A stretch of 64,000 nucleotides of DNA, taken from positions 92,566,001-92,630,000 of the forward strand of contig CM059427.1 in assembly GCA_030390025.1 (NCBI GenBank). Reading direction: 5' to 3'. The DNA is from Squalus acanthias. Lineage: Eukaryota. The position numbers and the translations under genes were made by a program. Below, piece by piece: positions 544 through 59,257 of the stretch. Every line of letters begins with the position of its first letter. Position 1 is the stretch's first letter. Below the pieces are notes generated by a model that had not been told where the DNA came from, searched no databases, and was given only the letters and a program-made list of their open reading frames with translations.

Positions 544-3500
544 ATTTATCGCACAGGCAAATTGTCGTACAACGTGGATTTAACATTCTCGGTGAAAGAA
601 ACCGTCTGCTCCAAGAATTCTGGACTGGAATTTGATGATCCCAGCTGTCACTTCCGTCCCAAAAAGACTGCTGTGAGTCCTGAGTTATATTGTAGCATCG
701 AAACCCCCATGTCTACTGAGTTATATCATAGAAAGGGCCGTGTGTATTGAGTTATATCATAGAAAGGGCCGTGTGTACTGAGTTATATCATAGAAAGGGC
801 CGTGAGAACTGAGTTATATCATAGAAAGGGCCGTGTGTACAGAGTTATATCATAGAAACATAGAAACATAGAATCTAGGAGCAGGAGTAGGCCATTCGAG
901 CCTGCTCCGCCATTCAATACGATCATGGCTGATCATCCAAATCCAGTACCCTGTCCCTGCTTTAATCCCCACAGTACACATATCCCACCCTACCCCCGTA
1001 ACCCCACGTATTTAATTCCCCCTAACATATCCCATCCTATCCCCATAACCCCACATATTTAATCCCCCCTAACACTAAGGGTCAATTTATCATAGCCAAA
1101 TCAACCTAACCCACACATTTTTGGACTGTGGGAGGAAACCGGAGCACCCAGAGGAAACCCACGCAGACACGGGGAGAATGTGCAAACTCCACACAGACAG
1201 TCACCCGAGGTCAGATTCGAACCCGGGTCTCTGGCGCTGTGAGGCACCAGTGCTAACCACTATGCCACCGTGTTGCCCGAAAGGGCTGTGTGTACTGAGT
1301 TATATCATAGAAAGGGCCGTGTGTAATGAGTTATATCATAGAAAGGGCCGTGAGTACTGAGTTATATCATAGAAAGGGCTGTGTGTACTGAGTTATATCA
1401 TAGAAAGGGCCGTGAGTACTGAGTTATATCATAGAAAGGGCTGTGTGTACTGTGTTATATCATAGAAAGGGCCGTGAGTACTGAGTTATATCATAGAAAG
1501 GGCCATGAGTAACGAGTTATATCGTAGTAACTTTCTGTGCCAGTGCTGAGCTTACATTCATCAAGAGTTTTAATGAAATGTGTTTTATTTTGATAGGGAA
1601 ACGGGTTTTGCAAAAGCCGTGTTGAATATTTTGCTGATGAGGTTGTTGACATCGTTGTGGAGTGTCGAGGTTTGAAGACAGTTGACAGCAACAGTGATTC
1701 ATCAGAGTCAAGTGAAGACAGTATTGAGGTAACCTCATAATTATTCAAACCGCGACAATGGGGTTCCTGGACTTTGGGTCAGGATTTTCTCCCCTGTCGC
1801 AGTTTTTTTTTCCTATCTTCACTCTCTTCCCTTGGACAACAGTGTGAAGCAGTGAAAGAAAGATTGCATTGATATTTTTCACAACCTCACTGTCGTAAGT
1901 CATTTGGAAGAGCGGGATGTGACCAGGGTTGTGTAGAGAGCCCAATGAAGAGATCTTCAATTGTGTAAGGAACACACAGGTATGAGTAAAGAGAATGGGC
2001 ATCAGGGCAAAAATTCTCAAGTGGCTAAAGTTATTCCTGGCACAAAGGAAGATGGTCGTGGTTGTTGGTGGCTCATCATCTTTGCCCGAGGACATCATTG
2101 CATGAGTTCTCAGGGCAATGGTGTATGGCCAATCATCTTCAGCTGCTTCATCAAATTCCTAACCTTCATCATAAGGCCAGAAGTGGGTCTGTTCCCCTGT
2201 TCAGCTCCATTCATAATCGAAGCTTAGCATGCCTGCATGCAGCAAGACCTGGACAATATTCAGGATTGGGTTGCTAAGTGGCAAGGAACATTCGCATGAC
2301 AGAAGTGCGAGGCAATGACCATCTCAGACAAGATAGAGCCAAAGGGCTCTTCAGCATTGACAACCTTTCGACCCATCATTGATTGACATACTCACCAAAT
2401 TGAAAGACGATCAGAGCAGCACCCGTTTGATTTCAGTAGCAAAGAGTTCCCAACTAATATATCCAAATATTAAACTTTTATCATAGAAAGTAATCACTGC
2501 TCACTCTGTTGGGGTTAAGGCAATAAAGTCCACTTTATTACTTTAGTACTTTAACCGTTGGCTTAACACCCCACTGTACCAGGGCAGGATTGATTGATTG
2601 CTGCATTTTAGATTATCCCAGTGTTCGGTGAGGACTTTATCACCTCAACACTGAACTATTAAATCTCAACTGTGAAACCAATGAGTTAATCTTTCCCTGG
2701 ATTACTATCTAATACTTTTGATATCATTAATGTGAAGATGATTTTAAAACCGGATTCCATTTACAAAATGCCTAAATATCTAAATATGACTGTTTTACTC
2801 CAGGTGGAAAAGAAGTCAAAAGAAACATCACTTGAGGAGACTTCAAATGTAAGTATAAACAGGGACTTTGTGTCAGATGATTGTCTTCCTGGTCATGGTG
2901 CTCAACAACAATAAACTGTTGAAATGGTGGCTAAAGTAAATGTTGGTCCCTTAGAGGATGAGACCGGGAAATTAATGGTGGGAAATATGGAGATGGCAAA
3001 AACACTGAATGAATATTTTGTATCAGTCTTTACAGTAGAGGACACTAAGAATATCCCAACACTGGACAAACAGGGGGCTATAGGGGGAGAGGAGCTAAAC
3101 ACGATCAAAATCACTAAGGAAGTGGTACTCGGTAAAATAATGGGACTCAAGGCGGATAAATCACCTGGACCTGATGGCTTACATCCTAGAGTCTTGAAGG
3201 AAGTGGCGGTAGGGATTGTAGATGCATTGGTAATAATTTTTCAAAACTCCCTGGATTCCGCTAAGGTCCCGGCAGACTGGAAAACTGCTAATGTAACACC
3301 CTTATTTAAAAAGGGCAGTAGACAGAAGGCTGGTAACTATAGACCGGTTAGCCTAACATCTGTGGTAGGTAAAATTTTGGAGTCCATTATTAAGGAAACA
3401 GTAACAGGACATTTGGATAATCATAATTTAATAGGACAAAGTCAGCATGGTTTTACGAAGGGGAAGTCATGTTTGACAAATTTGCTGGAGTTCTTTGAGG

Positions 3501-6500
3501 AAGTAACATATAGAGTGGATAAAGGGGAACCAGTGGACGTAGTGTATTTAGACTTCCAAAAGGCATTTGACAAGGTGCCACACAAAAGATTATTGCTTAA
3601 GGTAAAAAATCACGGGATTGGGGGTAATATTCTGGCATGGATAGAGGATTGGCTATCTAACAGAAAGCAAAGAGTTGGGATAAATGGTTCATTCTCAGAC
3701 TGGCAATCAGTAACTAGTGGTGTTCCACAGGGGTCAGTGCTGGGTCCCCAACTCTTCACAATCTATATTAACGATTTGGAGGAAGGGACCAAGTGTAACA
3801 TATCAAAATTTGCAGATGATACAAAGATGGGAGGGAAAGTAGTGAGTGAGGAGGACATAAAAAACCTGCAAGGGGACATAGACAGGCTAAGTAAGTGGGC
3901 AGAGATTTGGCAGATGGAATACAACACTGGAAAGTGTGAGGTGATGCACTTTGGCAGGAAAAATCCTAGAGCAATTTATTATCTTAATGGCAAGAAACTG
4001 GAGAGTACTGAAGTGCAAAGGGATCTGGGGGTCCTGGTGCACGAAACTCAAAAGGTTAGTATGCAGGTGCAGCAAGTGATTAAGAAGGCAAATGGAATGT
4101 TGGCTTTCATTGCTAGGGGGATAGAATATAAAAATAGGGAGGTATTGCTTCAGTTGTACAAGGTATTGGTGAGACCGCACCTGGAATACTGCATACAGTT
4201 TTGGTGTCCTTACTTAAGGAAAGACATCCTTGCTCTCGAGGCAGTGCAAAAAAGGTTCACTCGGTTAATCCCGGGGATGAGGGGGTGGTCATATGAGGAG
4301 AGGTTGGGTAGATTGGGACTCTACTCATTGGAGTTCAGAAGAATGAGAGGCGATCTTATTGAAACATATAAGATTGTGAAGGGGTTGGATCGGGTGGATG
4401 CGGGGAGGATGTTCCCGATGATGGGTGAGACTAGAACTAGGGGACATAGTCTTAGAATAAGGGGCTGCTCTTTCAAAACTGAGATGAGGAGGAACTACTT
4501 CACTCAGAGGGTGGTAGGTCCATGGAATATGCTGCCACAAAAAGCTGTAGAAGCTACATCATTAAATAAATTTAAAACAGAAATAGACAGTTTCCTAGAA
4601 GTAAAGGGCATTAAGGGTTACGGGGAGCGGGCAGGAATTTGGACATGAGTCTAGGTTAGGTTCGGTCATGGCCCTGTGGGTAGTGGAGCGGGCCCAGGGA
4701 CCTTGTAGCCTGATTCTGCTCCTATTTCGTGTGTGCAATTCTGTTAGATGCAGGAGATGGTTCTGTGATAGATAGTAGATTGGCGGTTAGGATCAGATCA
4801 GCCATGATCTTATTGAATGGCGGAGCAGGCTCGAGGGGCCGATTGGCCTACTCCTGCTCCTATTTCTTATGTTCTTATGTTCTTATGTAGAATGGAGTCT
4901 CAGGCAGCAATGTGCTTTTATTCAATGCAATATCCACCCAGAGGCAGTGAGGGAAGGGGCACTGATGCTCAATTCCTATTGGATGTTCTCCAACCCATGA
5001 CAAAGGATTATTGAACTGATGAAAGTAGAGAGGATGAGTTTGTTTTCACTTAAGATAAAGTGAGCTGAATTCCCACAGCGTTAGGATAGGTACTCTGCTC
5101 CTGACCTCATTACAGCCTTGGTCCAAACATGGACAAAGGAGCTGAATTCCAGAAGTGAGGTGAGAGTGACTGCCCTTGACATCAAGGCAGCATTTGACCG
5201 AGTGTGGCATCAAGGAGCCCTAGTAAAACTGAAGTCCATGGGAATCAGGGAGAAAACGCTCTACTGGCTGGAGTCATACCTAGCACAAAGGAAGATGGTT
5301 GTGGTGATTAAAGGTCAATCATCACAGCCCCAGGACATCGCTGCAGGAGTTCCTCAGGGCAGTGACCTGGGACCAACCATCTTCAGCTGCTTCATCAATG
5401 ACCTTCCCTCCAACATAAGGTCAGAAATGAGGATGTTCGCTGATGACTGTACAATGTTCAGTGCCATTCGCAAATCCTCATATAATGAAGCAGTCCATGC
5501 CCGCATGCAACAAGACCTGGACGACGTTCAGGCTTGGGCTGATAAGTGGCAATTAACATTCGCGACACCGAAGTGCTAGGCAATGACTATCTCCAACAAG
5601 CGAGAGTCTATCCACCTCCCCATGACATTCAACGGCATTATCATGGCTGAATCCCCCACCATCAACATCCTGGGGGTCACCATTGACCAGAAACATAACT
5701 GGACCAGCCACATAAATACTGTAGCAACAAGAGCAGGTCAGAGGCTACGTATTCTGTGGCGAGTGTCTCACCTCCTGACTCCCCAAAGCCTTTCTACCAT
5801 CTACAAGGCACAAGTCAGGAGTGTGATGGAATACTCTCCACTTGCCTGGATGAGTGCAGCTGCAACAACACTCAAGAAGCTCCACACCATCCAGGACAAA
5901 GCAGCTCACTTGATTGGCACCCCATCCACCACCTTAAACATTCACTCCCTCCACCACTGGTGTACCGTGGCTGCAGTGTGTACCATTTACAAGATGCACT
6001 GCAGCAACTCGCTAAGGCTTCTTCGGCAGCACCTCCCAAACCCGCGACCTCTTCCACCTAGAAGGACAAGGGCAGCAGGCGCATGGGAACACCACCACCT
6101 CCAAGTTTCCCTCCAAGTCACATACCATCCTGAGTTTCAAGTATATCGCCGATCCTTCATCGTCCCTGGGTCAAAATCCTGGAACTCCTTACCTAACAGC
6201 ACTGTGGGAGTACCTTCACCACACGGACTGCAGCGGTTGAAGAATGCGGCTCACCACCACCTTCTCAAGGGCAACTAGAGATGGGCAATAAATGCTGGCC
6301 TTGCCAGCGACGCCTACATCCCAGGAACGAATAAAAAAAAAGTGATGACATCATGAGGGCAGTGTGTGTTACATTCTCACCATTTAATAAATAATTATTA
6401 GATTTTTGCACGGGACGGAGAATAAACACAATAGAAACCAATTGATGAATAATCTCAGCCTTCATTAGTTTAACCATTGACCCCAATGCCCCACTGTACC

Positions 6501-7236
6501 AGGGCTGTATTGATTATTGCTGCACTGCAGGACATGAAATGTTTGTTTAGGAATTTGCCACTCCCTGAACTCTGAAATGTCCAGAGTTAACACTTCCTCA
6601 TTTGTCATTTAATAATTTTGTTTAATTCTTTTATTATTTAAAAAATGTATCATTGATCCACTGTGCTAAACATATCAATATGAATACTTTAATTCAGGTG
6701 AAAAACAAGTCAAAAGAATCGTCACTCGAGGAGCCTCCAAATGTAAGTATAATCTGGGACTTTTACTCAGATGATTATCAACTACAATAAACTGTTGAAA
6801 CCTGGATTCAGCTGTGTCAGAATCGAGTCTGAGGCAGCTCTGTGTTTTTATTCAATTAAATGAATGCCTGGAGCCTAGAAATTTAACGAGTTCACAATTT
6901 CTCATTTATGGTTTAATAATCAGTGAAATCTATGTTTTGAAGATAATTCTAAAACTCAATATTATTTACACAATGTCTCATTAATCCCCTGTACTAAACA
7001 GATAAATGTTAATATTTTAATACAGATGAAAAGCAAGTCAAAAGAATTATCGCTCGAGGAGTCTTCAAATGTAAGTATAAACTGGGACTTTGTTTCAGAT
7101 AATTGCCTTCTTGATCATGATTATCAACAACAATAAAACACTGATCTCAGATTGAACTCAGTCCATCTGAAAATGACAATTCTGTTGATTCCGTTCACTA
7201 CAGGAACACAATGATGATTCAAGAGCCCGACACTAA
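544..7236 (+). CDS. spp2-like: SPP2 (secreted phosphoprotein 24)-like secreted cystatin-fold phosphoprotein, copy A (5'-partial; exons 1-2 lie upstream of the window)
   Basis: Exons 544-672, 1597-1728, 2804-2848, 6698-6742, 7026-7070, 7204-7236 (TAA). All have AG/GT boundaries and phase 0, and the frame is continuous. The translation contains LTFSVKETVCSK...PSCHF and FCKSRV...VEC followed by a Ser/Glu-rich tail, resembling SPP24 (LEFSIRETTC...CAF, VCRSTV...C, poly-Ser) as recalled. Confidence 0.85.
715..1523. repeat. 31-bp minisatellite in intron 3 of copy A (~12 units, interrupted by a SINE)
   Basis: Tandem ACTGAGTTATATCATAGAAAGGGCCGTG(T/A)GT. Confidence 0.95.
851..1278 (-). mobile_element. 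Full-length tRNA-derived V-SINE (HE1-like) with a CR1-type 3' tail, specific to copy A
   Basis: On the minus strand: A box TGGCATAGTGG, B box GGTTCGAATC, V-domain GTGGAGTTTGCACATTCTCCCCGTGTCTGCGTGGGTTTCCTC, and a tail ending (TTTCTATG)n. Absent from the minisatellite of copies B-E. Confidence 0.9.
1985..2345 (+). mobile_element. Old, degenerate non-LTR RT fragment in intron 4 (same family as the intron-5 LINE; present in all five copies)
   Basis: GCACAAAGGAAGATGG..., TTCAGCTGCTTCATCAA and GCATGCAGCAAGACCTGGAC align with 5284-5600, with deletions. Confidence 0.75.
2924..4648 (+). CDS. CR1 ORF2 reverse transcriptase and C-terminal region (no endonuclease domain; ATG supplied by the host flank)
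   Basis: 574 aa open frame with canonical non-LTR RT motifs. Confidence 0.85.
   Translation: MVAKVNVGPLEDETGKLMVGNMEMAKTLNEYFVSVFTVEDTKNIPTLDKQGAIGGEELNTIKITKEVVLGKIMGLKADKSPGPDGLHPRVLKEVAVGIVDALVIIFQNSLDSAKVPADWKTANVTPLFKKGSRQKAGNYRPVSLTSVVGKILESIIKETVTGHLDNHNLIGQSQHGFTKGKSCLTNLLEFFEEVTYRVDKGEPVDVVYLDFQKAFDKVPHKRLLLKVKNHGIGGNILAWIEDWLSNRKQRVGINGSFSDWQSVTSGVPQGSVLGPQLFTIYINDLEEGTKCNISKFADDTKMGGKVVSEEDIKNLQGDIDRLSKWAEIWQMEYNTGKCEVMHFGRKNPRAIYYLNGKKLESTEVQRDLGVLVHETQKVSMQVQQVIKKANGMLAFIARGIEYKNREVLLQLYKVLVRPHLEYCIQFWCPYLRKDILALEAVQKRFTRLIPGMRGWSYEERLGRLGLYSLEFRRMRGDLIETYKIVKGLDRVDAGRMFPMMGETRTRGHSLRIRGCSFKTEMRRNYFTQRVVGPWNMLPQKAVEATSLNKFKTEIDSFLEVKGIKGYGERAGIWT
2928..4888 (+). mobile_element. 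5'-truncated young CR1 LINE, specific to copy A (intron 5)
   Basis: Uninterrupted ORF2 remainder with KSPGPDG, NYRPVSLTS, YLDFQKAFDKVPH, GVPQGSVLGP and KFADD, then a 3' UTR ending (TTCTTATG)n. The empty site GAAATGGAGTCAGAATGG is visible at 16327. Confidence 0.96.
5092..6341 (+). mobile_element. 5'-truncated CR1-group (possibly Zenon-like) LINE with poly(A) end, intron 5 of copy A; disrupted
   Basis: ALDIKAAFDRVWH, GVPQGS, MFADD, then AATAAA and an A-tail; in-frame stop at 5577-5579. Confidence 0.9.
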
Positions 7237-12902: not shown

Positions 12903-15900
12903 ATGAAATCCTTTCTCCTCACCATTGCTGCAGTGCAGATCCTCCACTGCTCAGGTACGTACTGGAGAGAGCTGCACCTCATAAAGCAACCAGTTATTGG
13001 GAATGAGCTTCAGTCAGCGATACTTTAACAATGTTTCAAAAGAATTCACTGAAGAATGCTGGAGTGTTTTGTACAACTTTCCTTTTCTCTCTGCAGGAGT
13101 CCCAAGCCCGAAGGATGCTCTGAGAGTGTCAGTTCTGAAGCTGAACGAAATCACCGAGACCACCAATCTCTGTGGTATAACCAGGAGAAGAGTGAAGGAT
13201 GTAAGTGTGTCCTGGTCTAAGTGTGTTTCACTGTCTAAACTCTACAAGAATATTACTGAGTTCAGTTAGACACTGATTATTAAACATGAGCGGAATATTA
13301 TATTAGTTATCTTTTGCCTTGTACAATCATCTCTTTTGTCATTTAATCTCTCCTGCTTTCCACCCTATCTCAGACCTTCCCTTTTGTTCTTTCCTCCTAT
13401 CACTCCTTTCCCTGCTCTGAACTTGTTTAGAACCTCTTACATCTGTAACATTTTCCAGTTCAGATGAAAGGACATCGACCTGAAACGTTAACTCTGTTTC
13501 TCTCTCCACAAATTCAGACTGACCTGCTGAGCATTTCCAGTATTTTCTGCTTTATTTCAAATTTCCAGCATCCGCAGTATTTTGCTTTTGTATTATATTG
13601 GGCTAGAAATTTTGGTCGGATGCATACCTCCAGAGTATGCCTCCGACCCGCGAAAGAATTATGAAACTACCTGCTGGCAGCGAGGCTGCGAAAACTTGTG
13701 GTCTCAGTCCTCAAGGCAGAGGGCAGCATAATGGCCCATGGATGCCAGGGATGTAGGAGGTGCGGAAGCATACCCGGGATCACGTGGGTCTGGTCCTCCA
13801 ATCACAAAGGAGAATTCCATTTTAATCATTTACGAAGGGAATCAATGAATGAGAGGCAATGGAATCCAGAAATCTAATAATTATACAATTTACAGAATTG
13901 GAATTTTATTCATAATTCCACCAACCTCACTAAAAATGCAATTTTTTGATAATAATTTTATACATCATTAACACTGTAATCCGACCAATATTTGTATAAA
14001 CTCATTTTATACAGTGCATAATTTACTATATGAAAATGATTAATTAATGGCTTAGATATTCCCTTACGCTGATGCAAACAGGCCATGTGCCTGCTTGCAT
14101 GAACCGTAAGACTTCTGTGTGCAATCGCTGGCCAGTTGGTGGGCAAAAAGCCCAACTCTGTGCCTGCGATTGCTTTCTTGAGGCCTGCGCAGCAGACCCG
14201 TCAACATGTACGATGATAGGCTGCAAGTTTCGGATTTTGCGCATGGTTAAAGGGGACATTTTGTGTTTGGACATATTAAATATTCTGTCCCTGTAGGTTG
14301 ATGATTCTGACTGTCCCAGTGGAGGCATCTGTTGAAAATAAAGAGCTGTGTTGTTCTGAGCTTTATCTGACCAGAGTAAGAACACTAGATACAATAACAC
14401 ACTAATGACCTTTTTCACTTTCATTAGATTTATCGCACAGGCAAATTGTCGTACAACGTGGATTTAACATTCTCGGTGAAAGAAACCGTCTGCTCCAAGA
14501 ATTCTGGACTGGAATTTGATGATCCCAGCTGTCACTTCCATCCCAAAAAGACTGCTGTGAGTCCTGAGTTATATTGTAGCATCGAAACCCCCATGTCTAC
14601 TGAGTTATATCATAGAAAGGGCCGTGTGTACTGAGTTATATCATAGAAAGGGCCGTGAGAACTGAGTTCTATCATAGAAAGGGCCGTGTGTACAGAGTTA
14701 TATCATAGAAAGGGCCGTGAGTACTGAGTTATATCATAGAAAGGGCTGTGTGTACTGAGTTATATCATAGAAAGGGCCGTGAGTACTGAGTTATTTCATA
14801 GAAAGGGCCGTGAGTACTGAGTTATATCATAGAAAGGGCCGTGTGTACTGAGTTATATCATAGAAAGGGCCGTGAGTACTGAGTTATATCATAGAAAGGG
14901 CCATGAGTAACGAGTTATATCGTAGTAACTTTCTGTGCCAGTGCTGAGCTTACATTCATCAAGAGTTTTAATGAAATGTGTTTTATTTTGATAGGGAAAC
15001 GGGTTTTGCAAAAGCCGTGTTGAATATTTTGCTGATGAGGTTGTTGACATCGTTGTGCAGTGTCGAGGTTTGAAGACTGTTGACAGCAACAGTGAATCAT
15101 TAGAGTCAAGTGAAGACAGTATTGAGGTAACCTCATAATTATTCAAACCGCGACAATGGGGTTCCTGGACTTTGGGTCAGGATTTTCTCCCCTGTCGCAG
15201 TTTTTTTTTCCTATCTTCACTCTCTTTCCTTGGACAACAGTGTGAAGCAGTGAAAGAAAGATTGCATTGATATTTTTCACAACCTCACTGTCGTAAGTCA
15301 TTTGGAAGAGCGGGGTGTGACCAGGGTTGTGTAGAGAGCCCAATGAAGAGATCTTCAATTGTGTAAGGAACACACAGGTATGAGTAAAGAGAATGGGCAT
15401 CAGGGCAAAAATTCTCAAGTGGCTAAAGTTATTCCTGGCACAAAGGAAGATGGTCTTGGTTGTTGGTGGCTCATCATCTTTGCCCGAGGACATCATTGCA
15501 TGAGTTCTCAGGGCAATGGTCCATGGCCAATCATCTTCAGCTGCTTCATCAATGACCTACCCTTCATCATAAGGCCAGAAGTGGGTCTGTTCCCCTGTTC
15601 AGCTCCATTCATAATCGAAGCTTAGCATGCCTGCATGCAGCAAGACCTGGACAATATTCAGGATTGATTGGCTAAGTGGCAAGGAACATTCGCATGACAG
15701 AAGTGCGAGGCAATGACCATCTCAGACAAGATAGAGCCTAAGGGCTCTTCAGCATTGACAACCTTTTGACCCATCATTGATTGACATACTCACCAAATTG
15801 AAAGACGATCAGAGCAGCACCCGTTTGATTTCAGTAGCAAAGAGTTCCCAACTAATATATCCAAATATTAAACTTTTATCATAGAAAGTAATCACTGCTC

Positions 15901-18685
15901 ACTCTGTTGGGGTTAAGGCAATAAAGTCCACTTTATTACTTTATTACTTTATTACTTTAACCGTTGGCTCAACACCCCACTGTACCAGGGCAGGATTGAT
16001 TGATTGCTGCATTTTAGATTATCCCAGTGTTCGGTGAGGACTTTATCACCTCAACACTGAACTATTAAATCTCAACTGTGAAACCAATGAGTTAATCTTT
16101 CCCTGGATTACTATCTAATACTTTTGATATCATTAATGTGAAGATGATTTTAAAACCGGATTCCATTTACAAAATGCCTAAATATCTAAATATGACTGTT
16201 TTACTCCAGGTGGAAAAGAAGTCAAAAGAAACATCACTTGAGGAGACTTCAAATGTAAGTATAAACAGAGACTTTGTGTCAGATGATTGTCTTCCTGGTC
16301 ATGGTGCTCAACAACAATAAACTGTTGAAATGGAGTCAGAATGGAGTCTCAGGCAGCAATGTGCTTTTATTCAATGCAATGTCCACCCAGAGGCAGTGAG
16401 GGAAGGGGCACTGATGCTCAATTCCTATTGGATGTTCTCCAACCCATGACAAAGGATTATTGAACTGATGAAAGTAGAGAGGATGAGTTTGTTTTCACTG
16501 AAGATAAAGTGAGCTGAATTCCCACAGCGTTAGGATAGGTACTCTGCTTCTGACCTCATTACAGCCTTGGTCCAAACATGGACAAAAGAGCTGAATTCCA
16601 GAAGTGAGGTGAGAGTGACTGCCCTTGACATCAAGGCAGCATTTGACCGAGTGTGGCATCAAGGAGCCCGAGTAAAACTGAAGTCCATGGGAATCAGGGA
16701 GAAAACGCTCTACTGGCTGGAGTCATACCTAGCACAAAGGAAGATGGTTGTGGTGATTAAAGGTCAATCATCACAGCCCCAGGACATCGCTGCAGGAGTT
16801 CCTCAGGGCAGTGACCTGGGACCAACCATCTTCAGCTGCTTCATCAATGACCTTCCCTCCAACATAAGGTCAGAAATGAGGATGTTCGCTGATGACTGTA
16901 CAATGTTCAGTGCCATTCGCAAATCCTCATATAATGAAGCAGTCCATGCCCGCATGCAACAAGACCTGGACGACGTTCAGGCTTGGGCTGATAAGTGGCA
17001 ATTAACATTCGCGACACCGAAGTGCTAGGCAATGACTATCTCCAACAAGCGAGAGTCTATCCACCTCCCCATGACATTCAACGGCATTATCATGGCTGAA
17101 TCCCCCACCATCAACATCCTGGGGGTCACCATTGACCAGAAACATAACTGGACCAGCCACATAAATACTGTAGCAACAAGAGCAGGTCAGAGGCTACGTA
17201 TTCTGTGGCGAGTGTCTCACCTCCTGACTCCCCAAAGCCTTTCTACCATCTACAAGGCACAAGTCAGGAGTGTGATGGAATACTCTCCACTTGCCTGGAT
17301 GAGTGCAGCTGCAACAACACTCAAGAAGCTCCACACCATCCAGGACAAAGCAGCTCACTTGATTGGCACCCCATCCACCACCTTAAACATTCACTCCCTC
17401 CACCACTGGTGTACCGTGGCTGCAGTGTGTACCATTTACAAGATGCACTGCAGCAACTCGCTAAGGCTTCTTCGGCAGCACCTCCCAAACCCGCGACCTC
17501 TTCCACCTAGAAGGACAAGGGCAGCAGGCGCATGGGAACACCACCACCTCCAAGTTTCCCTCCAAGTCACATACCATCCTGAGTTACAAGTATATCGCCG
17601 ATCCTTCATCGTCCCTGGGTCAAAATCCTGGAACTCCTTACCTAACAGCACTGTGGGAGTACCTTCACCACACGGACTGCAGCGGTTGAAGAATGCGGCT
17701 CACCACCACCTTCTCAAGGGCAACTAGAGATGGGCAATAAATGCTGGCCTTGCCAGCGACGCCTACATCCCAGGAACGAATAAAAAAAAAGTGATGACAT
17801 CATGAGGGCAGTGTGTGTTACATTCTCACCATTTAATAAATAATTATTAGATTTTTGCACGGGACGGAGAATAAACACAATAGAAACCAATTGATGAATA
17901 ATCTCAGCCTTCATTAGTTTAACCATTGACCCCAATGCCCCACTGTACCAGGGCTGTATTGATTATTGCTGCACTGCAGGACATGAAATGTTTGTTTAGG
18001 AATTTGCCACTCCCTGAACTCTGAAATGTCCAGAGTTAACACTTCCTCATTTGTCATTTAATAATTTTGTTTAATTCTTTTATTATTTAAAAAATGTATC
18101 ATTGATCCACTGTGCTAAACATATCAATATGAATACTTTAATTCAGGTGAAAAACAAGTCAAAAGAATCGTCACTCGAGGAGCCTCCAAATGTAAGTATA
18201 ATCTGGGACTTTTACTCAGATGATTATCAACTACAATAAACTGTTGAAACCTGGATTCAGCTGTGTCAGAATCGAGTCTGAGGCAGCTCTGTGTTTTTAT
18301 TCAATTAAATGAATGCCTGGAGCCTAGAAATTTAACGAGTTCACAATTTCTCATTTATGGTTTAATAATCAGTGAAATCTATGTTTTGAAGATAATTCTA
18401 AAACTCAATATTATTTACACAATGTCTCATTAATCCCCTGTACTAAACAGATAAATGTTAATATTTTAATACAGATGAAAAGCAAGTCAAAAGAATTATC
18501 GCTCGAGGAGTCTTCAAATGTAAGTATAAACTGGGACTTTGTTTCAGATAATTGCCTTCTTGATCATGATTATCAACAACAATAAAACACTGATCTCAGA
18601 TTGAACTCAGTCCATCTGAAAATGACAATTCTGTTGATTCCGTTCACTACAGGAACACAATGATGATTCAAGAGCCCGACACTAA
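12903..18685 (+). CDS. spp2-like: SPP2-like secreted phosphoprotein, copy B (194 aa, complete)
   Basis: Exons 12903-12954 (signal peptide MKSFLLTIAAVQILHCS-G, phase 1), 13097-13200, 14428-14556, 14995-15126, 16210-16254, 18147-18191, 18475-18519, 18653-18685. Splice sites are canonical, a TATA box lies 97 nt upstream and there is an A at -3. CSG|VPSPKDALRVSVLKLN parallels SPP2 CSG|FP...LRDALSASVVKVN. Confidence 0.88.
13304..13591 (+). mobile_element. Penelope-type 3' terminal fragment of a second family in intron 2 (also in copies C, D, E)
   Basis: Pyrimidine-rich stretch, then CAGATGA-AAGGACATCGACCT-GAAACGTT (degenerate hammerhead core) and ...GACCTGCTGAG.TTTCCAG... terminus. Confidence 0.6.
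13600..14291. mobile_element. Possible decayed Harbinger-type MITE in intron 2
   Basis: GGGCTAGAAATTT ... AAATATTCTGTCCC weak inverted termini; no clear TSD. Confidence 0.35.
14599..14921. repeat. 31-bp minisatellite, copy B (~10 units)
   Basis: Same unit, read directly. Confidence 0.95.
16541..17790 (+). mobile_element. Same intron-5 LINE, copy B
   Basis: ORFs 16567-17028 and 17032-17727. Confidence 0.9.
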
Positions 18686-24351: not shown

Positions 24352-27300
24352 ATGAAATCCTTTCTCCTCACCATTGCTGCAGTGCAGATCCTCCACTGCT
24401 CAGGTACGTACTGGAGAGAGCTGCACCTCATAAAGCAACCAGTTATTGGGAATGAGCTTCAGTCAGCGATACTTTAACAATGTTTCAAAAGAATTCACTG
24501 AAGAATGCTGGAGTGTTTTGTACAACTTTCCTTTTCTCTCTGCAGGAGTCCCAAGCCCGAAGGATGCTCTGAGAGTGTCAGTTCTGAAGCTGAACGAAAT
24601 CACCGAGACCACCAATCTCTGTGGTATAACCAGGAGAAGAGTGAAGGATGTAAGTGTGTCCTGGTCTAAGTGTGTTTCACTGTCTAAACTCTACAAGAAT
24701 ATTACTGAGTTCAGTTAGACACTGATTATTAAACATGAGCGGAATATTATATTAGTTATCTTTTGCCTTGTACAATCATCTCTTTTGTCATTTAATCTCT
24801 CCTGCTTTCCACCCTATCTCAGACCTTCCCTTTTGTTCTTTCCTCCTATCACTCCTTTCCCTGCTCTGAACTTGTTTAGAACCTCTTACATCTGTAACAT
24901 TTTCCAGTTCAGATGAAAGGACATCGACCTGAAACGTTAACTCTGTTTCTCTCTCCACAAATTCAGACTGACCTGCTGAGCATTTCCAGTATTTTCTGCT
25001 TTATTTCAAATTTCCAGCATCCGCAGTATTTTGCTTTTGTATTATATTGGGCTAGAAATTTTGGTCGGATGCATACCTCCAGAGTATGCCTCCGACCCGC
25101 GAAAGAATTATGAAACTACCTGCTGGCAGCGAGGCTGCGAAAACTTGTGGTCTCAGTCCTCAAGGCAGAGGGCAGCATAATGGCCCATGGATGCCAGGGA
25201 TGTAGGAGGTGCGGAAGCATACCCGGGATCACGTGGGTCTGGTCCTCCAATCACAAAGGAGAATTCCATTTTAATCATTTACGAAGGGAATCAATGAATG
25301 AGAGGCAATGGAATCCAGAAATCTAATAATTATACAATTTACAGAATTGGAATTTTATTCATAATTCCACCAACCTCACTAAAAATGCAATTTTTTGATA
25401 ATAATTTTATACATCATTAACACTGTAATCCGACCAATATTTGTATAAACTCATTTTATACAGTGCATAATTTACTATATGAAAATGATTAATTAATGGC
25501 TTAGATATTCCCTTACGCTGATGCAAACAGGCCATGTGCCTGCTTGCATGAACCGTAAGACTTCTGTGTGCAATCGCTGGCCAGTTGGTGGGCAAAAAGC
25601 CCAACTCTGTGCCTGCGATTGCTTTCTTGAGGCCTGCGCAGCAGACCCGTCAACATGTACGATGATAGGCTGCAAGTTTCGGATTTTGCGCATGGTTAAA
25701 GGGGACATTTTGTGTTTGGACATATTAAATATTCTGTCCCTGTAGGTTGATGATTCTGACTGTCCCAGTGGAGGCATCTGTTGAAAATAAAGAGCTGTGT
25801 TGTTCTGAGCTTTATCTGACCAGAGTAAGAACACTAGATACAATAACACACTAATGACCTTTTTCACTTTCATTAGATTTATCGCACAGGCAAATTGTCG
25901 TACAACGTGGATTTAACATTCTCGGTGAAAGAAACCGTCTGCTCCAAGAATTCTGGACTGGAATTTGATGATCCCAGCTGTCACTTCCATCCCAAAAAGA
26001 CTGCTGTGAGTCCTGAGTTATATTGTAGCATCGAAACCCCCATGTCTACTGAGTTATATCATAGAAAGGGCCGTGTGTACTGAGTTATATCATAGAAAGG
26101 GCCGTGAGAACTGAGTTCTATCATAGAAAGGGCCGTGTGTACAGAGTTATATCATAGAAAGGGCCGTGAGTACTGAGTTATATCATAGAAAGGGCTGTGT
26201 GTACTGAGTTATATCATAGAAAGGGCCGTGAGTACTGAGTTATTTCATAGAAAGGGCCGTGAGTACTGAGTTATATCATAGAAAGGGCCGTGTGTACTGA
26301 GTTATATCATAGAAAGGGCCGTGAGTACTGAGTTATATCATAGAAAGGGCCATGAGTAACGAGTTATATCGTAGTAACTTTCTGTGCCAGTGCTGAGCTT
26401 ACATTCATCAAGAGTTTTAATGAAATGTGTTTTATTTTGATAGGGAAACGGGTTTTGCAAAAGCCGTGTTGAATATTTTGCTGATGAGGTTGTTGACATC
26501 GTTGTGCAGTGTCGAGGTTTGAAGACTGTTGACAGCAACAGTGAATCATTAGAGTCAAGTGAAGACAGTATTGAGGTAACCTCATAATTATTCAAACCGC
26601 GACAATGGGGTTCCTGGACTTTGGGTCAGGATTTTCTCCCCTGTCGCAGTTTTTTTTTCCTATCTTCACTCTCTTTCCTTGGACAACAGTGTGAAGCAGT
26701 GAAAGAAAGATTGCATTGATATTTTTCACAACCTCACTGTCGTAAGTCATTTGGAAGAGCGGGGTGTGACCAGGGTTGTGTAGAGAGCCCAATGAAGAGA
26801 TCTTCAATTGTGTAAGGAACACACAGGTATGAGTAAAGAGAATGGGCATCAGGGCAAAAATTCTCAAGTGGCTAAAGTTATTCCTGGCACAAAGGAAGAT
26901 GGTCTTGGTTGTTGGTGGCTCATCATCTTTGCCCGAGGACATCATTGCATGAGTTCTCAGGGCAATGGTCCATGGCCAATCATCTTCAGCTGCTTCATCA
27001 ATGACCTACCCTTCATCATAAGGCCAGAAGTGGGTCTGTTCCCCTGTTCAGCTCCATTCATAATCGAAGCTTAGCATGCCTGCATGCAGCAAGACCTGGA
27101 CAATATTCAGGATTGATTGGCTAAGTGGCAAGGAACATTCGCATGACAGAAGTGCGAGGCAATGACCATCTCAGACAAGATAGAGCCTAAGGGCTCTTCA
27201 GCATTGACAACCTTTTGACCCATCATTGATTGACATACTCACCAAATTGAAAGACGATCAGAGCAGCACCCGTTTGATTTCAGTAGCAAAGAGTTCCCAA

Positions 27301-30160
27301 CTAATATATCCAAATATTAAACTTTTATCATAGAAAGTAATCACTGCTCACTCTGTTGGGGTTAAGGCAATAAAGTCCACTTTATTACTTTATTACTTTA
27401 TTACTTTAACCGTTGGCTCAACACCCCACTGTACCAGGGCAGGATTGATTGATTGCTGCATTTTAGATTATCCCAGTGTTCGGTGAGGACTTTATCACCT
27501 CAACACTGAACTATTAAATCTCAACTGTGAAACCAATGAGTTAATCTTTCCCTGGATTACTATCTAATACTTTTGATATCATTAATGTGAAGATGATTTT
27601 AAAACCGGATTCCATTTACAAAATGCCTAAATATCTAAATATGACTGTTTTACTCCAGGTGGAAAAGAAGTCAAAAGAAACATCACTTGAGGAGACTTCA
27701 AATGTAAGTATAAACAGAGACTTTGTGTCAGATGATTGTCTTCCTGGTCATGGTGCTCAACAACAATAAACTGTTGAAATGGAGTCAGAATGGAGTCTCA
27801 GGCAGCAATGTGCTTTTATTCAATGCAATGTCCACCCAGAGGCAGTGAGGGAAGGGGCACTGATGCTCAATTCCTATTGGATGTTCTCCAACCCATGACA
27901 AAGGATTATTGAACTGATGAAAGTAGAGAGGATGAGTTTGTTTTCACTGAAGATAAAGTGAGCTGAATTCCCACAGCGTTAGGATAGGTACTCTGCTTCT
28001 GACCTCATTACAGCCTTGGTCCAAACATGGACAAAAGAGCTGAATTCCAGAAGTGAGGTGAGAGTGACTGCCCTTGACATCAAGGCAGCATTTGACCGAG
28101 TGTGGCATCAAGGAGCCCGAGTAAAACTGAAGTCCATGGGAATCAGGGAGAAAACGCTCTACTGGCTGGAGTCATACCTAGCACAAAGGAAGATGGTTGT
28201 GGTGATTAAAGGTCAATCATCACAGCCCCAGGACATCGCTGCAGGAGTTCCTCAGGGCAGTGACCTGGGACCAACCATCTTCAGCTGCTTCATCAATGAC
28301 CTTCCCTCCAACATAAGGTCAGAAATGAGGATGTTCGCTGATGACTGTACAATGTTCAGTGCCATTCGCAAATCCTCATATAATGAAGCAGTCCATGCCC
28401 GCATGCAACAAGACCTGGACGACGTTCAGGCTTGGGCTGATAAGTGGCAGATAACATTCGCGCCACAGAAGTGCCAGGCAATGACTATCTCCAACAAGTG
28501 AGAGTCTATCCACCTTCCCATGACATTCAATGGCATTACCATGGCTGAATCCCCCACCATCAACATCCTGGGGGTCACCATTGACCAGAAACATAACTGG
28601 ACCAGCCACATAAATACTGTAGCAACAAGAGCAGGTCAGAGGCTACGTATTCTGCGCGAGTGTCTCACCTCCTGACTCCCCAAAGCCTTTCTACCATCTA
28701 CAAGGCACAAGTCAGGAGTGTGATGGAATACTCTCCACTTGCCTGGATGAGTGCAGCTCCAACAACACTCAAGAAGCTCCACACCATCCAGGACAAAGCA
28801 GCTCACTTGATTGGCACCCCATCCACCACCTTAAACATTCACTCCCTCCACCACTGGTGTACCGTGGCTGCAGTGTGTACCATTTACAAGATGCACTGCA
28901 GCAACTCGCCAAGGCTTCTTCGGCAGCACCTCCCAAACCCGCGACCTCTTCCACCTAGAAGGACAAGGGCAGCAGGCGCATGGGAACACTACCACCTCCA
29001 AGTTCCCCTCCAAGTCACATACCATCCTGACTTACAAGTATATCGCCGATCCTTCATCGTCGCTGGGTCAAAATCCTGGAACTCCTTACCTAACAGCACT
29101 GTGGGAGTACCTTCACCACATGGACTACAGCGGTTTAAGAATGCGGCTCACCACCACCTTCTCAAGGGCAACTAGAGATGGGCAATAAATGCTGGCCTTG
29201 CCAGCGACGCCTACATCCCAGGAACGAATTAAAAAAAAGTGATGACATCATGTGGGCAGTGTCTGTTACATTCTCACCATTTAATAAATAATTATTAGAT
29301 TTTTGCACGGGACGGAGAATAAACACAATAGAAACCAATTGATGAATAATCTCAGCCTTCATTAGTTTAACCATTGACCCCAATGCCCCACTGTACCAGG
29401 GCTGTATTGATTATTGCTGCACTGCAGGACATGAAATGTTTGTTTAGGAATTTGCCACTCCCTGAACTCTGAAATGTCCAGAGTTAACACTTCCTCATTT
29501 GTCATTTAATAATTTTGTTTAATTCTTTTATTATTTACAAAATGTATCATTGATCCACTGTGCTAAACATATCAATATGAATACTTTAATTCAGGTGAAA
29601 AACAAATCAAAAGAATCGTCACTTGAGGAGCCTCCAAATGTAAGTATAATCTGGGACTTTTACTCAGATGATTATCAACTACAATAAACTGTTGAAACCT
29701 GGATTCAGCTGTGTCAGAATCGAGTCTGAGGCAGCTCTGTGTTTTTATTCAATTAAATGAATGCCTGGAGCCTAGAAATTTAACGAGTTCACAATTTCTC
29801 ATTTATGGTTTAATAATCAGTGAAATCTATGTTTTGAAGATAATTCTAAAACTCAATATTATTTACACAATGTCTCATTAATCCCCTATACTAAGCAGAT
29901 AAATGTTAATATTTTAATACAGATGAAAAGCAAGTCAAAAGAATTATCGCTCGAGAGCAAGTCAAAAGAATTATCGCTCGAGGAGTCTTCAAATGTAAGT
30001 ATAAACTGGGACTTTGTGTCAAATAATTGCCTTCTTGATCATGATTATCAACAACAATAAAACACTGATCTCAGATTGAACTCAGTCCATCTGAAAATGA
30101 CAATTCTGTTGATTCCGTTCACTACAGGAACACAATGATGATTCAAGAGCCCGACACTAA
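24352..30160 (+). CDS. spp2-like: SPP2-like secreted phosphoprotein, copy C (203 aa; 9-aa duplication in exon 7)
   Basis: Exons 24352-24403, 24546-24649, 25877-26005, 26444-26575, 27659-27703, 29595-29639, 29923-29994 (72 nt), 30128-30160. Open frame with canonical splice sites. Confidence 0.88.
26048..26370. repeat. 31-bp minisatellite, copy C (~10 units)
   Basis: Same unit and same variant order as copy B. Confidence 0.95.
27990..29238 (+). mobile_element. Same intron-5 LINE, copy C
   Basis: ORFs 28016-28501 and 28660-29175, with a different stop and frameshift from A/B. Confidence 0.9.
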
Positions 30161-35850: not shown

Positions 35851-38800
35851 ATGAAATCCTTTCTCCTCACCATTGCTGCAGTGCAGATCCTCCACTGCTC
35901 AGGTATGTACTGGAGAGAGCCGCACCTCATAAAGCAACCAGTTATTGGGAATGAGCTTCAGTCAGCAATATTTTACCAATGTTTCAAAAGAATTCACTGA
36001 AGAATGCTGGAGTGTTTTGTACAACTTTCCTTTTCTCTCTGCAGGAGTCCCAAGCTCGAAGGATGCTCTGAGAGTGTCAGTTCTAAAGCTGAACGAAATC
36101 ACCGAGACCACCAATCTCTGTGGTATAACCAGGAGAAGAGTGAAGGATGTAAGTGTGTCCTGGTCTAAGTGTGTTTCACTGTCTAAAGTCTACATGAATA
36201 TTACTGAGTGCAGTTAGACACTGATTATTAAACATGAGCGGAATATTATATTACAGTTATCTTTTGCCTTGTACAATCATCTCTTTTGTCATTTAATCTC
36301 TCCTGCCTTCCACCCTATCTCAGACCTTCCCTTTTGTTCTTTCCTCCTATCACTCCTTTCCCTGCTCTGAACTTGTTTAGAACCTCTTACATCTGTAACA
36401 TTTTCCAGTTCAGATGAAAGGACATCGACCTGAAACGTTAACTCTGTTTCTCTCTCCACAAATGCAGACTGACCTGCTGAGCATTTCCAGTATTTTCTGC
36501 TTTATTTCAAATTTCCAGCATCCGCAGTATTTTGCTTTTGTATTATATTGGGCTAGAAATATTGGTCGGATGCATACCTCCAGAGTATGCCTCCGACCCG
36601 CGAAAGAATTATGAAACTACCTGCTGGCAGCGAGGCTGCCAAAACTTGTGGTCTCAGTCCTCAAGGCAGAGGGCAGCATAATGGCCCATGGATGCCAGGG
36701 ATGTAGGAGGTGCGGAAGCATACCCGGGATCACGTGGGTCTGGTCCTCCAATCACAAAGGAGAATTCCATTTTAATCATTTACGAAGGGAATCAATGAAT
36801 GAGAGGCAATGGAATCCAGAAATCTAATAATTATACAATTTACAGAATTGGAATTTTATTCATAATTCCACCAACCTCACTAAAAATGCAATTTTTTGAT
36901 AATAATTTTATACATCATTAACACTGTAATCCGACCAATATTTGTATAAACTCATTTTATACAGTGCATAATTTACTATATGAAAATGATTAATTAATGG
37001 CTTAGATATTCCCTTACGCTGATGCAAACAGGCCCTGTACCTGCTTGCATGAACCGTAAGACTTCTGTGTGCAATCGCTGGCCAGTTGGTGGGCAAAAAG
37101 CCCAATTCTGTGCCAGCGATTGCTTTCTTGAGGCCTGCGCAGAAGACTGTCAACACGTACGATGATAGGCTGCAAGTTTCGGATTTTGCGCATGGTTAAA
37201 GGGGACATTTTGTGTTTGGACATATTAAATATTCTGTCCCTGTAGGTTGATGATTCTGACTGTCCCGGTGGAGGCATCTTTTGAAAATAAAGAGCTGTGT
37301 TGTTCTGAGCTTTATCTGACCAGAGTAAGAACACTAGATACAATAACACACTAATGACCTTTTTCACTTTCATTAGATTTATCGCACAGGCAAATTGTCG
37401 TACAACGTGGATTTAACATTCTCGGTGAAAGAAACCGTCTGCTCCAAGAATTCTGGACTGGAATTTGATGATCCCAGCTGTCACTTCCGTCCCAAAAAGA
37501 CTGCTGTGAGTCCTGAGTTATATTGTAGCATCGAAACCCCCATGTCTACTGAGTTATATCATAGAAAGGGCCGTGTGTACTGAGTTATATCATAGAAAGG
37601 GCCGTGAGCACTGAGTTATATCATAGAAAGGGCCGTGTGTACAGAGTTATATCATAGAAAGGTCCGTGAGTACTGAGTTATATCATAGAAAGGGCTGTCT
37701 GTACTGAGTTATATCATAGAAAGGGCCGTGAGTACTGAGTTATATCATAGAAAGGGCCGTGTGTACTGAGTTATATCATAGAAAGGGCCGTGAGTACTGA
37801 GTTATATCATAGAAAGGGCCGTGAGTACTGAGTTATATCATAGAAAGGGCCGTGTGTACTGAGTTATATCATAGAAAGGGCCGTGAGTAACGAGTTATAT
37901 CGTAGTAACTTTCTGTGTCAGTGCTGAGCTTACATTCATCAAGAGTTTTAATGAAATGTGTTTTATTTTGATAGGGAAACGGGTTTTGCAAAAGCCGTGT
38001 TGAATATTTTGCTGAGGAGGTTGTTGACATCGTTGTGGAGTGTCGAGGTTTGAAGACTGTTGACAGCAACAGTGATTCATCAGAGTCAAGTGAAAACAGT
38101 ATTGAGGTAACCTCACAATTATACAAATTGGGGCAATGGGCTTCCTGGACTTTGGGTCAGGATTTTCTCCCCTGTCGCAGTTTTTTTTTCCTATCTTCAC
38201 TCTCTTCCCTTGGAGAATAGTGTGAAGCAGTGAAAGAAAGATTGCATTGATATTTTTCACAACCTCACTGTCGTAAGTCATTTGGAAGAGCGGGATGTGA
38301 CCAGGGTTGTGTAGAGAGCCCAATGAAGAGCTCTTCAATTGTGTAAGGAACACACAGGTATGAGTAAAGAGAATGGGCATCAGGGCAAAAATTCGCAAGT
38401 GGCTAAAGTTATTCCTGGCACAAAGGAAGATGGTCTTGGTTGTTGGGGGCTAATCATCTTTGCCCGAGGACATCATTGCATGAGTTCTCAGGGCAATGGC
38501 CCAGGACCAACCAGCTTCAGCTGCTTCATCAATGACCTACCCTTCATCATAAGGCCAGAAGTGGGTCTGTTCCCCTGTTCGTCTCCATTCATAATCGAAG
38601 CTTAGCATGCCTGCATGCAGCAAGACCTGGACGATATTCAGGATTGATTTGCTAAGTGGCAAGTAACATTCGCATGACAGAAGTGCGAGGCAATGACCAT
38701 CTCAGACAAGATAGAGCCTAAGGGCTCTTCAGCATTGACAACCTTTCGACCCATCATTGATTGACATACTCACCAAATTGAAAGACGATCAGAGCAGCAC

Positions 38801-45521: not shown

Positions 45522-45552
45522 AAGCTTTCGGAGCTGTCGCTCCTTCTTCAGG
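45522..45552 (-). ncRNA. Minimal hammerhead ribozyme motif in the Penelope terminus (left arm)
   Basis: CUGAAGA-AGGAGC-GACA-GCUCC-GAAA-GC-UU; stem III reduced to the palindrome AGCU. Confidence 0.7.
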
Positions 45553-45785
45553 TAGGGTAGCTGCTGAGAGAATCTCCCAGAATTCACAATATAAACACAG
45601 AAAAAATGTATTCAAATCTTTCCCTACATCAAAGACACACTAAGAGCACAGCCAAGACAATGAGATGTGTCCCAGGGGGTCCAATGTGTCAAAACACCTG
45701 CTGGCTGCATATCCTCTCCATTTGTGTTTGGTTCTTGTGTTAGTTTTTTTTTAAAATACCTGGAAAGACCGGCCATGATGTCAAG

Positions 45786-47720: not shown

Positions 47721-47934
47721 GTCAAGCTTAGGGCTGCGACCCTCCGGAGGGGTCCAATTTGACTCTTTCTTCCTCCAATATCCCCCACAATGACGGCATC
47801 GCTGCGACAGCCTCAGTACTCAACACCAACAACAGCCAATCTCCGGACGCCATCCTACAACTCATCGCTTCATCCTTGACCACAATGTCTTCACCTTCGA
47901 CAACCATTTTTTTACCCAAACACACGGAACAGCC

Positions 47935-49122: not shown

Positions 49123-49354
49123 CTTGACATCATGGCCGGTCTTTCCAGGTTTTTTAAAAAAAAACTAACACAAGAACCAAACACAAATGGAGAGGATATG
49201 CAGCCAGCAGGTGTTTTGACACGTTGGACCCCCTGGGACACATCTCATTGTCTTGGCTGTGCTCTTAGTGTGTCTTTGATGTAGGGAAAGATTTGAATAC
49301 ATTTTTTCTGTGTTTATATTGTGAATTCTGGGAGATTCTCTCACAGCTACCCTA

Positions 49355-49386
49355 CCTGAAGAAGGAGCGACAGCTCCGAAAGCTTG
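49355..49386 (+). ncRNA. Minimal hammerhead ribozyme motif in the Penelope terminus (right arm)
   Basis: CCTGAAGAAGGAGCGACAGCTCCGAAAGCTTG. Confidence 0.7.
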
Positions 49387-59000: not shown

Positions 59001-59257
59001 ATTAATCCCCTGTACTAAACAGATAAATGTTAATATTTTAATACAGATGAAAAGCAAGTCAAAAGAATTATCGCTCGAAGAGTCTTCAAATGTAAGTATA
59101 AACTGGGACTTTGTGTCAGATAATTGTCTTCTTGATCATGATTATCAACAACAATAAAACACTGAACTCAGATTGAACTCAGTCCATCTGAAAATGACAA
59201 TTCTGTTGATTCCGTTCACTACAGGAACACAATGATGATTCAAGAGCCCGACACTAA
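53014..59257 (+). CDS. spp2-like: SPP2-like secreted phosphoprotein, copy E (194 aa, last copy of the array)
   Basis: Exons 53014-53065, 53208-53311, 54547-54675, 55579-55710, 56781-56825, 58719-58763, 59047-59091, 59225-59257. Open frame; exon 3 starts IHRTDKLS instead of IYRTGKLS. Confidence 0.88.
54718..55505. repeat. 31-bp minisatellite, copy E (~25 units, more diverged variants)
   Basis: Same unit, with degenerate units around 55100-55180. Confidence 0.95.
57112..58362 (+). mobile_element. Same intron-5 LINE, copy E
   Basis: ORFs 57138-58082 and 57784-58299; frameshift in an A-run near 57747. Confidence 0.9.

Follow-up and report, generated by a model that had tools for sequence, protein, structure and literature searches.

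A 64,000 nt stretch of Squalus acanthias DNA (GCA_030390025.1, contig CM059427.1, positions 92,566,001 to 92,630,000 of the forward strand; hereafter, the window) contains a gene whose cystatin-like Spp-24 domain is followed by a tail built from duplicated 45 nt exons, each encoding two S-x-E motifs. The gene is a member of spp2.3 and not of the SCPP family, and sister copies in the same tandem cluster read the same exon block in another frame, which gives them a basic tail. The explanation that we consider probable is that spp2.3 copies with a phospho-tail bind mineral, while their sister copies carry a basic tail that binds matrix or ligands. The exon structure, its duplication, the copy number, the use of both frames, the stop codons in the unused frames and the spread across sharks and rays are all established, and both forms are seen spliced in an organism that is either related or the same. 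The exon mechanism of tail growth and the conserved frame switch are new here.

Exon structure and S-x-E tail of the window gene

The window gene has eight coding exons, all on the + strand, and splicing them at AG/GT ends yields an open frame of 194 aa. Coding exon 1 (12903..12954, 52 nt, ending in phase 1) holds the start codon and a hydrophobic leader, which is nearly identical across all relatives and is likely a signal peptide. The cystatin-like domain begins in exon 2 (13097..13200, 104 nt, phase 1 to 0), a region modelled in the close relative P0015. The core of the Spp-24 cystatin-like domain is encoded by exon 3 (14428..14556, 129 nt, phase 0), and exon 4 (14995..15126, 132 nt, phase 0) encodes the domain's end and, immediately after it as in SPP2, the ancestral serine cluster with three S-x-E motifs. 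Three micro-exons of 45 nt follow, each in phase 0 and each with two S-x-E motifs: micro-exon 1 (16210..16254), which has a stop codon in its shifted frame, micro-exon 2 (18147..18191) and micro-exon 3 (18475..18519), with one further motif spanning the junction to the last exon. The coding part of the last exon (18653..18685, phase 0) consists of 10 codons and the stop. A first-pass annotation of the window, made from its letters, had described exon 4, the three phase-0 micro-exons, the last exon and ten S-x-E sites, and its coordinates and peptides were all reproduced. The first coding intron is in phase 1 and the other six of seven are in phase 0, so that the introns are mostly phase 0, as in SCPP genes.

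The ten S-x-E motifs lie at residues 130-183, within a D/E-rich region as in SCPPs. When the 69-residue tail was shuffled, the mean number of motifs was 3.9, and ten were reached in one of 20,000 shuffles. S-x-E is the consensus of the Fam20C kinase. The annotation's acidic tail holds in sign, with 18 D/E and a net charge of -7, though as encoded the tail is only mildly acidic: because its 18 D/E are partly offset by 11 K/R, it would become strongly acidic only if phosphorylated. With all ten predicted sites phosphorylated, and only then, its net charge would be about -27.

Identity of the gene

The PF07448 profile matches exon 3 with an E-value of 2.9e-5 and 24.6 bits, slightly below the 26-bit cut-off for this fragment, and matches the full-length relative P0015 at 36 bits, above that cut-off. 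A search with exon 3 found 118 related proteins; the named ones are all from sharks or rays, mostly as 'secreted phosphoprotein 24-like', and identities are 77-95% among the 117 matches listed. Four cysteines are invariant in an alignment of 24 shark and bony-vertebrate proteins. The structural model of P0015 has a confident domain at residues 21-120 that matches cathelin and cystatins, with the human cathelin-like domain as its best fold match, followed by a low-confidence tail that is predicted to be disordered. The encoded protein is a cystatin-domain protein, likely secreted, and the SPP2 scaffold named by the annotation is borne out by the profile matches, the names of the relatives and the cystatin-like model.

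In a quick tree of 53 chosen rows, the window copies cluster with elasmobranch spp2.3 (Shimodaira-Hasegawa-like approximate likelihood ratio test, SH-aLRT, 96), apart from spp2.1, spp2.2 and the elephant-shark protein. All homology detected is to spp2; neither descent from sparc-L nor placement at the sparc-L locus, the marks of an SCPP, was found. The annotation's suggestion of convergence with SCPPs from a non-SCPP gene is supported. The Arg-rich C-terminus of bony-vertebrate proteins and spp2.1 is absent from the window copy, which has the S-x-E repeats instead; charge of the Arg-rich type is regained in the tails of two sister copies, g8 and g11, described below.

Tail growth by exon duplication

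The intron sequences flanking the micro-exons are homologous to one another over up to about 450 bases in six of six genes tested. In the window gene, the flanks of micro-exons 2 and 1 are homologous from -263 to +171, at 68% identity. Because the surrounding intron sequence is homologous, the units are duplicated exon-intron blocks, as the annotation had proposed. Among 20 distinct 45 nt exons, Ser5, Glu7, Ser9 and Leu10 never change and Glu11 is present in 19, while neighbouring residues vary (these counts exclude the loci g1 and g9, which are truncated and broken). The relatives preserve the same arithmetic. We anchored 110 of the 118 proteins and used the 55 with a canonical last exon and a non-basic tail; 30 of these 55, which are not independent rows, have a tail length of 10+15n residues. 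The largest number of units, seven, occurs in a 253-aa protein encoded on a 1,040 nt Logan contig.

In the paralogue spp2.2 there is one homologous 45 nt exon, acidic and in phase 0 (z 20-32, reached by none of 500 shuffles), which likely pictures the starting state. The comparison of spp2.1 exon 5 with the micro-exons gave z 1.0-3.6, with 5-92 of 500 shuffles as high, and it was not accepted as a homologue; the unit may have a deeper origin from this basic, 51 nt, phase-0 exon. Bony-vertebrate SPP2 proteins have 1-4 S-x-E motifs (five named: Pogonophryne, Amia, Acipenser, a bird and Platichthys), and no 15-residue period was found in the four that were tested. By this protein comparison the repeats are not ancestral in bony vertebrates, which upholds a point on which the annotation depended.

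None of the runs that matched the gene is on record as RNA; contigs were overlaid from four runs of one study, whose RNA nature was guessed, with g8 as the reference. In contig 20 of run X3 (depth 55), exon 4 and the last exon are separated by 134-135 letters, which corresponds to three units. The expected inclusion of the micro-exons in transcripts is therefore seen in contigs of relatives, this one and the seven-unit Logan contig, neither of them tied to the window copy.

Other lengthening routes occur alongside exon duplication. A 27 nt duplication inside the last micro-exon is present in 9 of 47 exons (window 29923-29994; also g2-g7, g14 and g22), and comparable 9-residue repeats are amplified in Pristiophorus proteins. 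The tail of the elephant-shark protein P0148 (Callorhinchus milii) has a period of 5 residues, not 15, with a basic stretch within its acidic repeats; it is apparently a separate expansion that holds both charges in one chain.

A conserved frame switch gives a basic tail

Three loci of the cluster (g8, g11 and g12) have a first micro-exon of 40 nt. This exon is a further copy of the block, with flanks homologous to those of the neighbouring exon from -274 to +73 (73%), and differs from the 45 nt unit by one 5 nt gap; the next 45 nt exon is therefore entered in phase 1. Past exon 4, the resulting tail has 28 K/R-rich residues, and the region's net charge is +8 or +9, as compared to -5 to -9 in acidic copies. 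The second exon of g8 and g11 shares 39 of its 45 bases with window micro-exon 3, and its phase-0 frame contains two stop codons, around which that unused frame still spells the acidic unit. The acidic 45 nt exons have stop codons in their own frame in 0 of 20 cases and in the shifted frame in 7 of 20. An additional 1 nt loss has broken g12, while g8 and g11 are intact.

The basic motif appears in 11 of the 110 anchored first matches and in 30 of 243 protein records overall, many of them redundant. In all 30 it lies 34 residues past the last domain cysteine, and the records come from 10 shark and 3 ray genera (Pristis, Hypanus and Narcine). Between sharks and rays, the basic core has an identity of 0.71 (24 pairs) versus 0.58 for the last acidic unit (32 pairs), although these pairs are not independent. 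The XBBXBX pattern for heparin binding, as quoted in PMC8007983, is matched by the basic core; a structural model of the basic type, with a predicted local distance difference test score (pLDDT) of 33, gives no information on its fold. Splicing of the basic form was found in contig 27 of run X4, where exon 4, 40 letters and the 45 nt exon are joined exactly where introns of 537 and 650 nt with GT-AG ends were predicted, with no differences in the listed pieces. A stop codon located at the last junction or close to it would not trigger nonsense-mediated decay.

Two further observations concern these tails. The last intron, of 133 nt (L022:404-536 in g8; window 18520-18652), is unspliced in contig 25 of run X4, and reading through it agrees with the unusual C-termini found in many annotated isoforms. 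The skate protein P0087 (Rhinoraja longicauda) has Lys-enriched in-frame units that have lost most S-x-E sites; this copy may be a replacement for the frameshifted basic copy, which was not seen in skates.

Expression of catshark orthologues

The chondrichthyan spp2 expansion was described in BMC Biol in April 2026 (PMC13188829, cited here from part of its text), together with the build-up of S-x-E motifs in the tails as putative Fam20C sites, the expression of spp2.3 in mineralising chondrocytes and a parallel with SCPPs. The annotation's view of an undescribed system has to be given up to that extent. The terms exon, intron, reading frame, conversion and lysine, and the stem splic-, do not appear in the main text of PMC13188829 through its Methods. 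No other treatment of shark spp2 was found in the literature searched, outside which lie most subscription journals, and within that incomplete coverage neither the exon mechanism nor the conserved pair of acidic and basic frames was found in print.

The catshark copies other than spp2.1 are said in PMC13188829 to be without an Arg-rich C-terminus, and spp2.3s1 and spp2.3s2 are counted there among the S-x-E-rich copies. These two have the frameshifted basic tail, with three S-x-E motifs; in s2, the basic unit is duplicated in frame. In the catshark gene list, their positions on either side of spp2.1 and spp2.2 largely resemble those of g8 and g11. According to Table 2 of PMC13188829, s1 and s2 together account for 42-45% of the spp2.3 transcripts per million (TPM) in vertebrae, chondrocranium and Meckel's cartilage. 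In its Table 1, s2 alone reaches 266 TPM before mineralisation, compared to 225 TPM for five acidic copies, and 1205 versus 1935 TPM afterwards. Across mineralisation, the acidic catshark copies rise 3-23-fold, and s1 and s2 are near zero in blood, gills and liver (PMC13188829).

The tandem cluster

The annotation had treated the gene as single. Instead, 21 spp2.3-type loci lie at G000:C3:92.05-92.65 Mb, five of them inside the window, with sister copies using another frame; this count exceeds 15, the highest given in the part of PMC13188829 cited. Including spp2.2 (g10), 22 loci were modelled in 660 kb (G000:C3 92.03-92.69 Mb). An open acidic tail with 2-3 micro-exons, the last one sometimes 72 nt, is present in 16 of the 22; g8, g11 and g12 are of the second type, with the 40 nt first micro-exon, g1 and g9 are broken, and the last donor of g22 is non-GT. 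No spp2.L gene was found in the 660 kb examined. The genes spp2.2 (G000:C3 92,435-92,449 kb) and spp2.1 (92,299-92,310 kb) lie between two spp2.3 arms, and the order of spp2.3 arm, spp2.2, spp2.1 and spp2.3 arm agrees with the catshark gene list. Exon 4 of spp2.2 (G000:C3:92445607-92445888) has a basic Gly/Lys-rich insert, another path to positive charge.

The other four copies in the window are all on the + strand. Three 45 nt exons are found in g17 (544..7236, with exons 1-2 to the left of the window), g20 (35851..41655) and g21 (53014..59257); in g19 (24352..30160), the 27 nt internal duplication extends the last micro-exon to 72 nt, for a total of 12 S-x-E motifs. The units of g19 and of g18, the gene analysed above, are 99.0% alike across 21.5 kb, and the copy number may be inflated by assembly duplication; the copies are nonetheless distinct in exons, satellite length and insertions.

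Every window copy has a 31 nt minisatellite of 5 to 26 units in intron 3 (14598-14925, 710-1527, 26047-26374, 37547-37905 and 54716-55509), which tells near-identical copies apart. Intron 5 (window 16480-17790) contains a long interspersed nuclear element (LINE)-type reverse-transcriptase fragment, also found in neighbouring copies, missing from the g8 and g11 tails and nearly missing from g13 and g14. Between g20 and g21, at window 45465-49442, there is a 1,670 nt inverted repeat, 99.6% identical, with a 640 nt spacer; a 677-aa frame on its minus strand matches RVT_1 (E 1.5e-8). From its layout, we take the element to resemble a young Penelope-type retroelement.

Proposed mechanism and alternative explanations

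In the mechanism that we propose, the tail grew by duplication of one symmetric 45 nt exon, and phosphorylation by Fam20C would convert near-neutral 15-residue units into a polyanion, which in mineralising cartilage would bind calcium phosphate. Such binding by a phosphorylated polyanion is known from SCPPs (PMC9122587, in part). Kinase activity would then switch mineral binding on, and the number of units (1 to 7) would tune it. The phase-0 acidic frame would be ancestral, with a single 5 nt loss before the shark-ray split creating the basic form; gene conversion would even out the N-terminal exons within each lineage and leave the basic exons in place. The basic tail would likely bind polyanionic matrix or ligands of the bone morphogenetic protein (BMP) family, providing a new route back to the Arg-rich C-terminus of bony-vertebrate Spp24. 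The family would thereby equip one domain with two address labels of opposite charge, one for mineral and one for the organic matrix.

Several observations weigh against this explanation. The acidic contig was not traced to the window copy, and splicing of the basic form is seen in one contig, at a depth of 4.2, from one run of guessed RNA nature; this contig continues into the last intron, and the stop predicted at the last junction is not seen. The catshark TPM values may be misassigned among near-identical paralogues, and the probes in PMC13188829 cross-hybridise. The basic motif is in no skate or Mobula record among the 243, the first basic exon is conserved no better than its acidic counterpart (0.44 versus 0.48), and the XBBXBX pattern is short and readily matched by K/R-rich sequence. 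In acidic exons, synonymous changes are 12 of 40 in frame 0 and 7 of 37 in the shifted frame, with 0.21 expected, a weak test. Finally, the N-terminal tree, a quick one, does not unite the basic copies (8 changes, at least 4 of them forced). The case for a single origin of the basic form therefore comes from the spacing and residues that these copies share. The N-terminal domains sort mostly by lineage and not by tail type, a pattern suggestive of gene conversion or of repeated duplication.

That sorting also suits a rival in which the basic copies are decaying, frameshifted duplicates with functionless tails, alike only through gene conversion with their acidic neighbours. One of the three basic loci (g12) is broken, shifted-frame tails also occur in isolated annotation isoforms (P0065 and P0131), and E/S-rich codons read in a shifted frame give K/R by the genetic code alone. 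We judge decay highly improbable, however, because residues specific to the basic tail require stop codons in the acidic frame, so that acidic exons cannot supply them by conversion; moreover, all 30 records, spanning sharks and rays, have the same exon length, and catshark s2 duplicated its basic unit in frame and is highly expressed. The direction of change is a separate question. It is very likely that the basic form derives from the acidic one, because the acidic frame is used at the end of both outgroups, spp2.2 and the elephant-shark protein, which lie apart from the spp2.3 group, and because the unused frame of the basic exons spells the acidic unit. The reverse, with an ancestral basic exon 5 as in spp2.1 and bony vertebrates, an S-x-E frame created by frameshift and basic copies as relics, appears improbable on the same evidence. 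It draws on the single short basic exon 5 of spp2.1, which has a similar splice acceptor, on bony-vertebrate tails that often contain Arg, and on gene conversion, which limits what the tree can say about the history of the tails; but both ends of spp2.1 exon 5 lie in phase 0, as in the acidic exons, and its weak resemblance to the micro-exons is mostly at the acceptor.

The function of each tail can also be read differently. A phosphorylated S-x-E tail could inhibit or solubilise mineral, as in hyperphosphorylated osteopontin or fetuin-type particles, or serve mostly as a spacer. PMC13188829 itself raises inhibition and cites reduced bone density with Spp2 over-expression, and the tail is near neutral without phosphate; invariant S-x-E positions speak against a plain spacer, and the 3-23-fold rise of acidic catshark copies (PMC13188829) also counts against this alternative. 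We regard it as unlikely; it shares the binding step with the mineral-binding explanation, and sequence does not separate inhibition from promotion of mineral. For the basic copies, the human cathelin-like domain as best fold match and a tail of net +8 or +9 with several dibasic sites evoke cathelicidin precursors, in which a cathelin-type domain releases a cationic antimicrobial peptide. We give this idea scarcely any credence. The Pfam Cathelicidins family scores an E-value of 0.098 for exon 3 and is unlisted at 1e-3 for P0130; the tails' hydrophobic moments (0.50-0.67) are not above those of shuffled sequences (12-14% of shuffles as high in five of six cases, 33% in one); and catshark s1 and s2 are expressed in cartilage and near zero in the blood, gills and liver covered by PMC13188829. 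An antimicrobial role of the basic tail is not supported. A more speculative extension of the mineral-and-matrix explanation, rather unlikely as a whole, is a two-component system for mineralising the cartilage of sharks and rays, built from a single exon. Phospho-acidic and polybasic Spp2 proteins, the latter due to a frameshift that predates the shark-ray split, would be secreted from one and the same set of chondrocytes at similar levels, with the basic protein appearing earlier, and would form a charge-paired complex able to mask proteoglycans and position calcium phosphate.

For the mineralisation of cartilage in sharks and rays, which have almost no SCPP genes, spp2.3 is the leading candidate. 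Our analysis supplies a mechanism for the growth of its phospho-tail, in which symmetric exons were duplicated, as in SCPPs, within a gene unrelated to them. The spp2.3 family is also not uniform, as more than 40% of the catshark spp2.3 transcript encodes the opposite charge, which changes the reading of published expression data. The basic tails are also a clear case of a frameshift retained through a deep divergence, beside which the earlier frame can still be read.

Comparison with known systems

The following comparisons use parts of the cited papers. The window gene shares with chondrichthyan spp2.3 (PMC13188829) the tandem expansion, a cystatin-like domain, a stretch of serines, the many S-x-E motifs and the gene order; that description differs in giving no exon structure. 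Bony-vertebrate SPP2/Spp24 (PMC3753320) likewise has a four-cysteine cystatin-like domain followed by a serine cluster, but it is a single gene with 1-4 S-x-E motifs and no 15-residue repeat in the proteins compared. Its Arg-rich C-terminus is cleaved and raises the affinity for BMP and TGF-beta (transforming growth factor-beta) 10-100-fold (PMC3753320). The shark basic copies resemble it in charge, though their tail comes from another reading frame and is not alignable to the Spp24 C-terminus. Calreticulin frameshift mutants, as far as our sources describe them, are somatic disease mutations of one gene, in contrast to the germ-line pair of paralogues kept in sharks and rays. Cathelicidins share with the basic copies a cathelin/cystatin fold followed by a cationic C-terminal peptide; however, family score and expression do not fit, and the amphipathicity of the tails is not above that of shuffled sequences.

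The closest parallel in construction is the SCPP family, including the elasmobranch scpp (PMC9122587), with which the window gene shares S-x-E motifs, introns of phase 0 across the acidic part, clustering in tandem, gene conversion among adjacent copies and mineralising tissue. SCPPs arose from the 5′ exons of sparc-L at the sparc-L locus (PMC9122587), whereas the window gene arose from spp2, has kept a folded cystatin domain and has a first coding intron in phase 1. The tail of the window gene is built like an SCPP tail and probably works like one.

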